A stretch of 28,315 nucleotides of DNA from a virus. Lineage: Duplodnaviria; Caudoviricetes. Every line of letters begins with the position of its first letter. Positions within the stretch are counted from its first letter, which is position 1. The stretch is taken from IMG/VR virus record IMGVR_UViG_3300038492_000301, positions 1 through 28,315 of that record; one strand, written 5' to 3'. A program made the position numbers and the translations under genes. The notes under the pieces are model-generated. The model saw only the letters and a list, made by a program, of their open reading frames with translations, had not been told where the DNA came from and did not search any database. Shown here one piece after another: positions 3,003 to 5,178 of the stretch.

Positions 3003-3148
3003 TGGCAATGGTGATGTCAAATATGCTGCCGTTCGCTATGGGCATGATTGCTGGCGGAGCTATCGTTTACATGTACCGTGCGTGGATTGATCGTAAGGTT
3101 AAACCTCACATCATGGACGCTGCGGACAAACTAAAGGATCAGATGTAA
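2999..3148 (+). CDS. Small membrane protein (49 aa, MMAMVMSNMLPFAMGMIAGGAIVYMYRAW...)
   Basis: Read manually, below the ORF-track cutoff; AGGAG RBS, ATGA overlap, one hydrophobic helix. Confidence 0.65.
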   Translation: MMAMVMSNMLPFAMGMIAGGAIVYMYRAWIDRKVKPHIMDAADKLKDQM

Positions 3149-3300
3149 TGGAAAAATTCACCAATAAAGGTCGTGGAGGCCAAACTCGTCCGGTTTTCAA
3201 GCCCAAAGCTGATGGAAGCCGCGGGAACATTGGTCGTGTCGCTGATCCTAAGGGCGGAGCTAACCCCTCAGGTCCACCGAACGGTCAGAAACCTAAATAA
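3148..3300 (+). CDS. Small basic Gly/Pro-rich peptide (50 aa, MEKFTNKGRGGQTRPVFKPK...)
   Basis: Read manually; TAATG coupling and AAGGA upstream. Confidence 0.6.
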   Translation: MEKFTNKGRGGQTRPVFKPKADGSRGNIGRVADPKGGANPSGPPNGQKPK

Positions 3301-3316
3301 ATAAAGAGGAGAGCCT

Positions 3317-3352
3317 ATGCTAACTATCGCTCATAACCTGAACTATAGTTAG
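3317..3352 (+). CDS. Putative 11-aa leader peptide MLTIAHNLNYS
   Basis: AAAGAGGAG RBS 7 nt before ATG; its TAG stop overlaps AGGAGGTGATCCA. Confidence 0.4.
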   Translation: MLTIAHNLNYS

Positions 3353-3703
3353 GAGGTGATCCATATCTCCGGCGAGAGCCGGTCAAGACGAGGTAGACGC
3401 ACCTAGAGAGGGCAACGTAGAGTCACTGCTGGTGGACGGGACTTATCCATCCCAGGTCGCTGGCGGCGGACGACGGAATCGGCACTCTGGGGAATGCTGA
3501 CCTCCCCGTGGGGACACGGGAAAACTTGGGGAGCCATACAGCTGGGAGGGAACCGCCCGGAGATGGTGGAACAACTCCCCAATACAGAAACGCCATCGTT
3601 GTCTCATAGAATAGGACTATTGGTCACGGACCCGGCGTAGGCGCTTAGCAGCTTGCGGGCGATGGCGATCGAAGGAGTTAGAAGGACAAGGAGGTCCTCC
3701 TCC
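3351..3703 (+). ncRNA. Candidate large structured RNA 1 (family unknown)
   Basis: No credible ORF. Consecutive stems: 3369-3382 (GAGA loop), 3391-3404, 3429-3455, 3456-3474, 3479-3500, 3505-3520 (GGGA loop), 3526-3582, 3591-3667, 3690-3703. Confidence 0.6.
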
Positions 3704-3731
3704 ACCAATGAACACAAAAGAGGAAATAACA

Positions 3732-3986
3732 ATGCGTCGTATCTTGTTTTGTGCTATGATTATCCTGATGCTCGGTTTGACCACTACGATCTGCAATCCA
3801 ATTGTTTCCCCTGGTATTCCCTTTGCTACTTTGGCTTACGCTGATGATGACGGCGGGCCTATTGAAGGTGGCGGAGGTGGTGGCGGAAACTGTTGTGATC
3901 CTACTGACGACGGTGATGGCGACGGTGGTCCGGACGAAGGTGACGATGGCGGTGGCGAAGAAGAGGGCGAAGGCTCAAACTTCTAA
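3732..3986 (+). CDS. Secreted acidic Gly/Asp/Glu-rich peptide
   Basis: AAAGAGGA RBS; MRR, hydrophobic stretch and AYA signal-peptidase-like site; mature part DDDGGPIEGGGGGGGNCCDP... is low complexity. Confidence 0.7.
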   Translation: MRRILFCAMIILMLGLTTTICNPIVSPGIPFATLAYADDDGGPIEGGGGGGGNCCDPTDDGDGDGGPDEGDDGGGEEEGEGSNF

Positions 3987-3993
3987 GACTTAA

Positions 3994-4075
3994 GGCGGGA
4001 TGAATCCCAGGTTCGACTCCTGGCCGCCTGTTCGCTACCTCGGGCGCGATAGCATAACCGGGAAATGCACCCGCC
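3994..4075 (+). ncRNA. Circularly permuted tRNA-like element (T arm, closed acceptor-like stem, D arm); YrlA/Y-RNA-like topology
   Basis: T arm CCAGG-TTCGACT-CCTGG 4007-4023; acceptor-like helix CCGCCTG 4024-4030 with CGGGCG(C)G 4041-4048; TA then D arm GCAT-AACCGGGAA-ATGC 4052-4068; closing helix GGCGGG 3994-3999 with CCCGCC 4070-4075. Confidence 0.7.
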
Positions 4076-4096
4076 GCTCCTTTTACAGCTAATAAC

Positions 4097-4169
4097 ACCT
4101 CCCACGCCTCTCAGGATCGGTACCTTGAATCCATCGGAGAGTTCCTGAAGCGCACCGGGGAGGTTTTTA
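4097..4169 (+). terminator. Long stem-loop followed by a T-tract; possible intrinsic terminator or ncRNA domain
   Basis: ACCTCCC 4097-4103 / GGGAGGT 4158-4164 and inner TCAGGA 4111-4116 / TCCTGA 4143-4148, followed by TTTTAT. Confidence 0.4.
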
Positions 4170-4480
4170 TTGGGTAGTTTCATGCCATGGCAAACTCTCC
4201 GTTCAACGAGTTCGTCTGATTCTACCCAACCAAGTGCCGCCTGTCACAGTCAGGCAACTGCGTAGTAACCTGTTTGGTGTAAAGCTGTGTTGAGCACGCC
4301 AAGTGAACCCTTGGAGGAAGAGGGACGCGAGCCTCTTCGGGTGAACGCGCACAAATGCAAGTAGGGCTGGGATACCCACCGGGGGCGTAATGCTACCAGG
4401 AAGAGTGGATCGAAACCACATAACTTGCGAGGATTGGAAGACTCAATGATTCCCGCCCGTGGGAGCGATATGGTCCCACT
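4170..4480 (+). ncRNA. Candidate large structured RNA 2 (family unknown)
   Basis: No plus-strand ORF in the track. Stems 4170-4229, 4239-4255, 4274-4302, 4356-4429 (multibranch, encloses T-loop-like GTGG-ATCGAAA-CCAC 4405-4419) and 4459-4479. Confidence 0.55.
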
Positions 4481-4497
4481 GAAATATAGGAGCACCT

Positions 4498-5178
4498 ATG
4501 AGTAAGAGCAGACAGAAGACTCCCATCACTGGTGTAACTACAGCTAGGAGTGAGAGAGATGACAAGCGGATCGCAAACAGGAAGCTCCGTCGAGCTTCAA
4601 GGATAGCCATCGGGCGCTATCTCAGAGGGGGATGTTCCCTGGACGAGAGTTCCTTAGTTCTGCCCAAGTTGCGCGAAGTGTCAAATGTATGGTGTATGGC
4701 CAAGGACGGAAAATGTAGATGGGGATGGGATTGGAATAACTGTCCTCCCTGGAAACTTTGGAAAGGAAAGCTCCCGGGTATGAAAGTTTGCAAAACATGT
4801 CTGGAGCGTAAACCTATTTCAAAGTTTTCCAAAAATGGACGTTATTACCGAGGCTCTTGTAAGCAATGTGAGAATGAAAAAATTCGTAATAGTGAGCCTC
4901 GTCAGGAACAATATCGTAGGAAACATTTTTTTACTAGATATGGGATTACTCTTGAACAATATGAAGCACAATTGGATAAACAAGGAGGGGTTTGTGCGAT
5001 ATGTTGTAATCCTCCTACGACGCGTAGGTTGTGCGTAGATCATAACCATGAGACTGGGGAAGTAAGGGGTTTGATTTGTAATTCGTGTAATAGAGGCTTA
5101 GGTTATTTGAAGGATGATTCCCGCTTACTTAAAGCTGCTGTTCAATACTTGGAGTATCCGCCATGGCCACGCCTTTAA
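4498..5178 (+). CDS. Arg-rich small phage protein fused in frame to an endonuclease VII-type (beta-beta-alpha-Me) nuclease; internal ATG at 4780
   Basis: AGGAG RBS. C-terminal part has CxxC...CxxC, YGITLEQY, QGGVCAIC and LCVDHNHETGEVRGLICNSCNRGLG, the endonuclease VII signature. Confidence 0.85.
   Translation: MSKSRQKTPITGVTTARSERDDKRIANRKLRRASRIAIGRYLRGGCSLDESSLVLPKLREVSNVWCMAKDGKCRWGWDWNNCPPWKLWKGKLPGMKVCKTCLERKPISKFSKNGRYYRGSCKQCENEKIRNSEPRQEQYRRKHFFTRYGITLEQYEAQLDKQGGVCAICCNPPTTRRLCVDHNHETGEVRGLICNSCNRGLGYLKDDSRLLKAAVQYLEYPPWPRL

Follow-up and report, generated by a model that had tools for sequence, protein, structure and literature searches.

We identified, in the late region of a tailed phage, a predicted structured non-coding RNA (approximately positions 3351–3707, on the plus strand, as are all features of the element given below) that opens with an extended Shine-Dalgarno (SD) sequence lacking a start codon. 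This SD head likely docks the 30S ribosomal subunit and likely serves as a protective cap or tether for the RNA behind it, a reading to which we assign a probability of about 0.45. The head is conserved in two syntenic phages and belongs to a widespread phage motif. By its sequence, it is the start-less counterpart of the alphaproteobacterial rre/CC2171 mini-mRNAs, from which it differs in score, start codon, and transcript layout. In the best reading, the head likely works like the rre RNAs or the stabilizing STAB-SD sequence, and the structured body behind it is an orphan.

The window, that is, the entire 28,315-nt stretch of DNA analyzed, is a single 28-kb virus record and covers a tailed-phage late region with genes for a holin (1470), a DUF1353 protein (2607), endonuclease VII (4498), and terminase (10056 and 10411), as well as portal, protease, capsid, tube, lysozyme, and tape measure genes. 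The element sits in a gap of ~380 nt without a recognizable gene, which is one of only two gaps longer than 150 nt among the ORFs listed for this gene-dense contig. A crude sigma-70 scan of the plus strand between 2400 and 5300 yielded no promoter-like site, and no plus-strand terminator was found before 4142. The contig sequence is present in aquatic metagenome runs of one study, and there is no RNA dataset among the runs listed as carrying it; the metagenome contigs, all from this study and possibly from the contig's own source, contain zero variants inside the element. In one run (X1), a second contig joins at 3424; this junction was discarded as a candidate module boundary because it is confined to that run and one-run branches of this kind join also at four places within coding DNA.

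The head begins with a ribosome-binding site (RBS) and an 11-codon micro-ORF (MLTIAHNLNYS; 3305–3352, ATG at 3317), whose TAG stop codon (3350–3352) overlaps the 13-nt extended SD, AGGAGGTGATCCA (3351–3363). The SD is a single site in the contig, even with two mismatches allowed, and lies within the 5′ consensus of Rfam family CC2171; these 13 nt are the part common with that consensus, and the full pairing length would depend on the 16S tail of the host. In the window sequence, no ATG, GTG, or TTG follows at SD distance. The rest of the head (3363–3385) consists of AUA-UCU, a C–G stem with a GAGA loop (3369–3382, 5 bp), and UCA. Thus, the conserved part starts upstream of position 3364, where a preliminary description of this DNA had placed the 5′ boundary, namely, at 3305 with the micro-ORF or at 3351 with the extended SD, and the first helix quoted in that description is part of an rre/CC2171-related head that it had missed. 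From the AUA, a 45-codon frame (3363–3500) runs through the predicted rod at 3390–3504, and the corresponding peptide was not recognized as a protein (recognition 1361, best score 0.82).

Relatives were sought with a profile of the ORF at 5163, which recovered eight metagenome loci, two of which (L215 and L220) reach the site; among the others, L222 has a different gene order without the head, L216–L218 are too short, and L219 and L221 begin inside the anchor gene. Scans anchored on the terminase, on ORF 5163 in viral contigs, and on ORF 3148 in genomes provided no usable loci. Proteins 76% and 70% identical to the flanking ORFs are listed with an 18,239-base ENA contig, probably one contig for both. 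L215 and L220 extend to an orthologue of ORF 3148–3300, which is followed in each by the leader seen in the window: an RBS, the start of the micro-ORF, the identical 13-nt SD, and, after 1–3 nt, TCTC. The conservation of the RBS and start was reached in 0 of 2000 shuffles for L215 and has P = 0.023 for L220. In both, the micro-ORF reads through the SD, for 31–32 codons and in two different frames, so that its peptide is not what is kept. At the position of the window's AUA, L215 has CAA, the frames equivalent to the 45-codon frame span 13 codons and are unrelated, and the stem is followed by NNG in L215 and L220, compared with UCA in the window. The module is absent from L222, and a tRNA occupies the syntenic site in G001.

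Behind the head, ~190 nt are 84% identical between L215 and L220, and the third codon positions of the adjacent thyX gene are 51% identical. This stretch (L215 334–520, L220 264–450) represents a conserved RNA directly before thyX, with a self-complementary second hairpin loop; it has no Rfam match above threshold, and the L215 version has no match in cultured phages. Across three helices in the two loci, all 40 cells pair, and 4 of the 20 pairs vary, each keeping its pairing, two of them by double changes; this covariation count is within the shuffle control (125/500), which two sequences cannot exceed. The bodies of L215 and L220 are not alignable to that of the window (P = 0.47; P = 0.10–0.23), and short motifs common to these bodies and that of the window were rejected (P = 0.47).

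The organization of the head recurs widely among phages. A viral scan for the SD plus TCTC covered 120 of the stretches, whose total is estimated at 220, and features outside the search pattern proved strongly enriched. UNA behind an anchored stem was present in 28 of 95 distinct viral matches, with mixed pair types, compared with 2.1 ± 1.5 in shuffles (maximum 7 in 300), and a pseudoknot fits 54 of 102 viral matches, compared with 13.8 ± 3.4 in shuffles. Members with the pseudoknot have an ATG before UCU in 1 of 46 cases and an A at the unselected position before UCUC in 43 of 46; the frame is open in 6 of 45, and 16 of 45 begin −2 to +6 nt from an upstream stop codon. Of the 49 other viral matches, 22 have the A; the frame is open in 31 of 48, and an upstream stop lies at this distance in 7 of 48. 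Among the downstream genes scanned, which come from the first 80 loci and include several close relatives, 18 of 27 are head, packaging, tail, or lysis genes, and the examples of the motif (L223–L342, e.g. L287, L244, L259, and L240) are in phage late operons and a tRNA cluster. This SD-AUCUC-pseudoknot motif is not in Rfam, and no description of it was found in the open-access literature. Motif-related sequence is unannotated in cultured phages; in Lactococcus phage 50101, the pseudoknot occurs without the SD before the terminase gene (L439, 1495–1525), indicating that the head and the fold are separable modules.

The window resembles this motif in the SD, A-UCU, anchored stem, and UNA, in overlapping the stop codon of an upstream frame, and in its late-operon setting, and differs from it in that a GAGA tetraloop replaces the pseudoknot, the second stem of which is absent from the window, and in the size of the body, 320 nt compared with 40–200 nt to the next gene. 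The fit of the window head to the pattern A-UCU-[C...G]-UNA, with a stem this long and UNA, has a chance P of 0.0035; the scan itself was built on the SD and TCTC.

In a genome scan that recovered 30 loci, 12 of the 16 scanned match CC2171 (RF01867) at E < 0.001, and four are above the cut-off. Of the chromosomal matches, 27 of 30 have GTG, ATG, or TTG before UCU, with an ORF of 14–27 codons, and 25 of 30 have AAC shortly upstream of the SD, as does the window. The canonical start and short ORF match these loci to the rre genes (PMC5711450), and we infer that the rreB/rreR mini-mRNAs and CC2171 are the same family; the main text of PMC5711450 never mentions CC2171 or pseudoknots, and 'phage' appears there only in a reference. 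CC2171 was confirmed as expressed (bioRxiv 2022.01.24.477521). The rre genes have a 17-nt SD and are weakly translated, and rreB co-sediments with 30S subunits; when its start codon is lost, ribosome association is kept and the half-life rises from 10 to 37 min (PMC5711450). The bases upstream of the canonical SD are crucial for this association, a 14-nt version without them being mostly soluble, and overexpression has no growth effect (PMC5711450); these results speak against the docking reading, as only 13 nt of the CC2171 stretch are present in the window. The function of rre/CC2171 RNAs is stated as elusive (PMC5711450). CC2171/rre-like genes with scores of 36–40 bits were also found outside Alphaproteobacteria, in genome records of Gemmatimonadales and Woeseiaceae (L409 and L432).

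Like rre/CC2171 RNAs, the window has an extended SD reaching up to the start-codon position, UCU, a C–G stem, and a structured RNA behind them. Unlike these RNAs, it is located in a phage rather than in a chromosome, has 13 instead of 16–17 nt of SD, carries AUA in place of the GUG or AUG start, and contains an internal antisense copy of the head; at ~355 nt it exceeds the 160 nt of rre, and instead of a stand-alone layout with promoter and terminator, it has a micro-ORF in front, and no terminator was found. The CC2171 score of the window is 12.2 bits and that of L215 is 22 bits, against a cut-off of 75. The other precedent is STAB-SD, a start-less SD that acts as a 5′ stabilizer of the cry3A mRNA of Bacillus thuringiensis (PMC4113751). 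As in STAB-SD, the SD-like sequence of the window serves as the start signal of no gene and could keep a 30S subunit bound at the 5′ end. However, STAB-SD protects an mRNA and has no described UCU-stem-UNA or pseudoknot module, whereas the SD of the window fronts a large predicted non-coding fold that would be stabilized by analogy. That the phage versions drop the start codon and keep the SD-UCU-stem geometry suggests that contact between RNA and ribosome, rather than a peptide, is what matters. The motif is common before scaffold, protease, terminase, and endolysin genes, and the occurrence of related sequence in cultured phages makes direct testing possible.

The body (3386–3707) is predicted to fold into an imperfect 115-nt rod (3390–3504; most helices with pair probabilities of 0.8–0.98), a 6-bp hairpin with a GGGA tetraloop (3505–3520; pair probability 1.0), a 57-nt arm (3526–3582) closed by an 8-bp stem (3526–3533/3575–3582), a 77-nt four-way domain (3591–3667) closed by another 8-bp stem (3591–3598/3660–3667), and a 3′ hairpin with a C/U-rich tail that ends in CCA and has no U-run terminator (3683–3707). 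The rod and the four-way domain, for which there is no homologue, are predictions only; the tail is predicted to pair alternatively with the SD core, with 3430–3443, or locally. The four helices quoted in the preliminary description all lie where it placed them, with pair probabilities of 0.94–1.0, and are on the plus strand. The folding energy is modest, with z-scores of −1.62 for this strand (6 of 100 shuffles being equal or better) and −0.63 for the minus strand, and the claim of helices with almost no gaps was overstated, with ~59% of the bases paired. When the boundaries were chosen afterwards, z reached −2.1 (3354–3707) and −2.8 (3431–3707; 0 of 60 shuffles), the latter ranking second of 49 windows of 277 nt. 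Two GNRA loops are closed by at least five Watson-Crick pairs, compared with a shuffle mean of 0.015, and none of 1000 dinucleotide shuffles reached two; no further stem of this kind occurs in the 83 tiles of the 28-kb contig, and one of the two belongs to the head. This is a clearer signal than the energy. Having two perfect 8-bp helices falls short of significance (P = 0.07); as many are found in several coding tiles.

No homologue of the body was found. BLASTn searches came back empty, with two short chance matches in phages and nothing in plasmids, and whole-record searches of 20 capsid relatives gave only three 14-mers. Viral pattern scans for the 3431/3707 closing stem, a junction 15-mer, and the SD plus AAGACG, the genome scan, and a single-sequence covariance model applied to 248 sources, with roughly half their loci covered, were likewise negative. 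Hence, the fold of 3386–3707 has no covariation support, and neither has the anti-head described below.

The one notable match of a model of 3505–3667 was to the reverse strand of the SD head of another phage, and it drew attention to a similar relation within the window: the 3′ strand of the 57-nt arm (~3554–3579) is a near-antisense copy of 3352–3374 in the head. The predicted duplex of head and anti-head, a post hoc finding, has an energy of −30.1 kcal/mol, a strength reached in 8 of 1000 shuffled bodies (P ~0.008) and in 0 of 79 other tiles; with shorter definitions of the head, P is 0.068 and 0.23. Among 66 other phage heads, one has a stronger downstream partner, and L215 and L220 are without an anti-head. 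In the predicted folds, a transcript that stops at 3570 is mostly in the masked state (P = 0.66); for longer ones, this state lies 3.4–6.7 kcal/mol above the minimum. Masking leaves the rod, the four-way domain, and the GGGA hairpin intact. The near-antisense copy suggests a self-masking state of the head.

In the mechanism that we favor, the micro-ORF, with its stop codon within the SD, would deliver ribosomes to the head, where a 30S subunit would pair with all 13 nt but initiate inefficiently, given the AUA and the stable stem behind them. The bound subunit might then block 5′-to-3′ decay in a STAB-SD-like manner, so that a stable RNA would remain after processing of the late transcript, with the rod and four-way domain taken as the stabilized cargo. 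A head left free of ribosomes could be captured and masked by the antisense strand (3554–3579). In a bolder and clearly unlikely version, the ~355-nt late RNA would capture micro-ORF-delivered 30S subunits and toggle between ribosome-bound and self-masked states through an internal mimic of the 16S tail, as an elaborated member of a widespread start-less SD-pseudoknot class. What the window adds to the phage motif, on any of these versions, is a large predicted fold without known relatives that contains its own antisense strand; it is a candidate ribosome-sensing RNA of a new type.

Several alternative readings were weighed against this one. That the element is a strongly diverged form of a large RNA already known (RNase P, tmRNA, group I or II intron, ROOL, GOLLD, or OLE) is highly improbable and already largely refuted. 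Its size and 3′ CCA would fit this reading, and its placement in a phage RNA island recalls ROOL and GOLLD, which are likewise large structured phage RNAs near tRNA islands with unknown function (PMC12286853); however, the element is much smaller than these and matches neither their sequences nor their models. The preliminary description, which could not match the element to RNase P, tmRNA, or introns, was right in this respect: the window lacks any Rfam match at E ≤ 1, ARAGORN called nothing, and neither source pointed to RNase P, tmRNA, group I or II introns, ROOL, GOLLD, OLE, or HEARO. Even at E ≤ 10, the isolated 461 nt matched only noise and a 12-bit trace of CC2171 on 3340–3400. There is no T-arm, and the P4 pseudoknot, P7, and domain V are absent by eye; an apparent resemblance to RNase P was also dismissed. 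The suggestion of an undescribed family holds for the body (3386–3707) only, for which no homologue was found, the head being related to known rre/CC2171 RNAs. It is possible, if unlikely, that two unrelated modules adjoin, the SD head (3305–3385) and a separate or recently gained RNA (~3430–3707) closed by a 3431–3443/3694–3706 stem. The best z (−2.8) belongs to just this segment, in the relatives this head is followed by another, shorter body, and the island swaps cargo, with thyX in L215 and L220 and a tRNA in G001; against this, the body holds an antisense copy of this very head, and the rod at 3390–3504 spans the supposed boundary when the 5′ part is folded along.

Weak translation from the AUA, as in an rre-type mini-mRNA with a 45-aa product and the structure serving as coding region plus 3′ UTR, is quite unlikely. 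The AUA-UCU frame is open for 45 codons, and a canonical start is at exactly this position in 27 of 30 chromosomal CC2171-type matches, but AUA is non-canonical and replaced by CAA in L215, the counterpart frames in L215 and L220 are short and unrelated, the window peptide is unrecognized, and a start is rare among the phage members (1 of 46). A ribosome-gated, attenuator-like cis switch, in which strand exchange among head, anti-head, and tail would set translation of ORF 3732–3986, is improbable: the head and the two strands of the arm are mutually exclusive and the C/U-rich tail lies near the downstream RBS, yet the predicted accessibility of this RBS barely shifts (0.33 free, 0.18 with the head blocked, and 0.18 masked), there is no terminator, and the arrangement is not conserved in L215 and L220. 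A still slimmer chance is left to a body that is a non-functional GC-rich spacer, partly an inverted duplication of the head with chance helices; z is −1.6 at the coordinates of the preliminary description and no homologues were found, and on the other side stand the GNRA statistic, of which one stem is the head's, the rarity of gaps this long in the contig, and the RNA-like elements that adjoin.

Further elements were observed elsewhere in the window. A compact Y-RNA-like element (3993–4079, plus strand) comprises a closing stem, a perfect T-arm, an acceptor-like stem, and a D-arm-like hairpin and scores 18 bits with the YrlA model, the cut-off of which is far higher (69). A hairpin followed by a U-run (4096–4176, plus strand) is terminator-like or a small RNA; it is conserved in L222 (1–95), to a degree that 0 of 300 shuffles reached, and its closing stem there is compensatory. 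A further non-coding stretch (4200–4497) has a folding z of +0.6 and no Rfam match and is not alignable to the post-thyX gaps of L215 and L220. ORF 3732–3986 encodes an 84-aa protein with a signal-peptide-like start and a Gly/Asp/Glu tail, which belongs to no Pfam or PHROG family. At 4498–5178, a conserved small basic phage protein is fused in frame to endonuclease VII; the two are separate overlapping ORFs in L216, a remnant is kept in L217, and L215, L220, and L222 are without endonuclease VII, which looks like a mobile insertion. Finally, a 53-nt inverted repeat (806–858/1145–1197, and 977–1193) surrounds a point of transcription divergence, and two pieces of it are common to another abundant contig in three runs.
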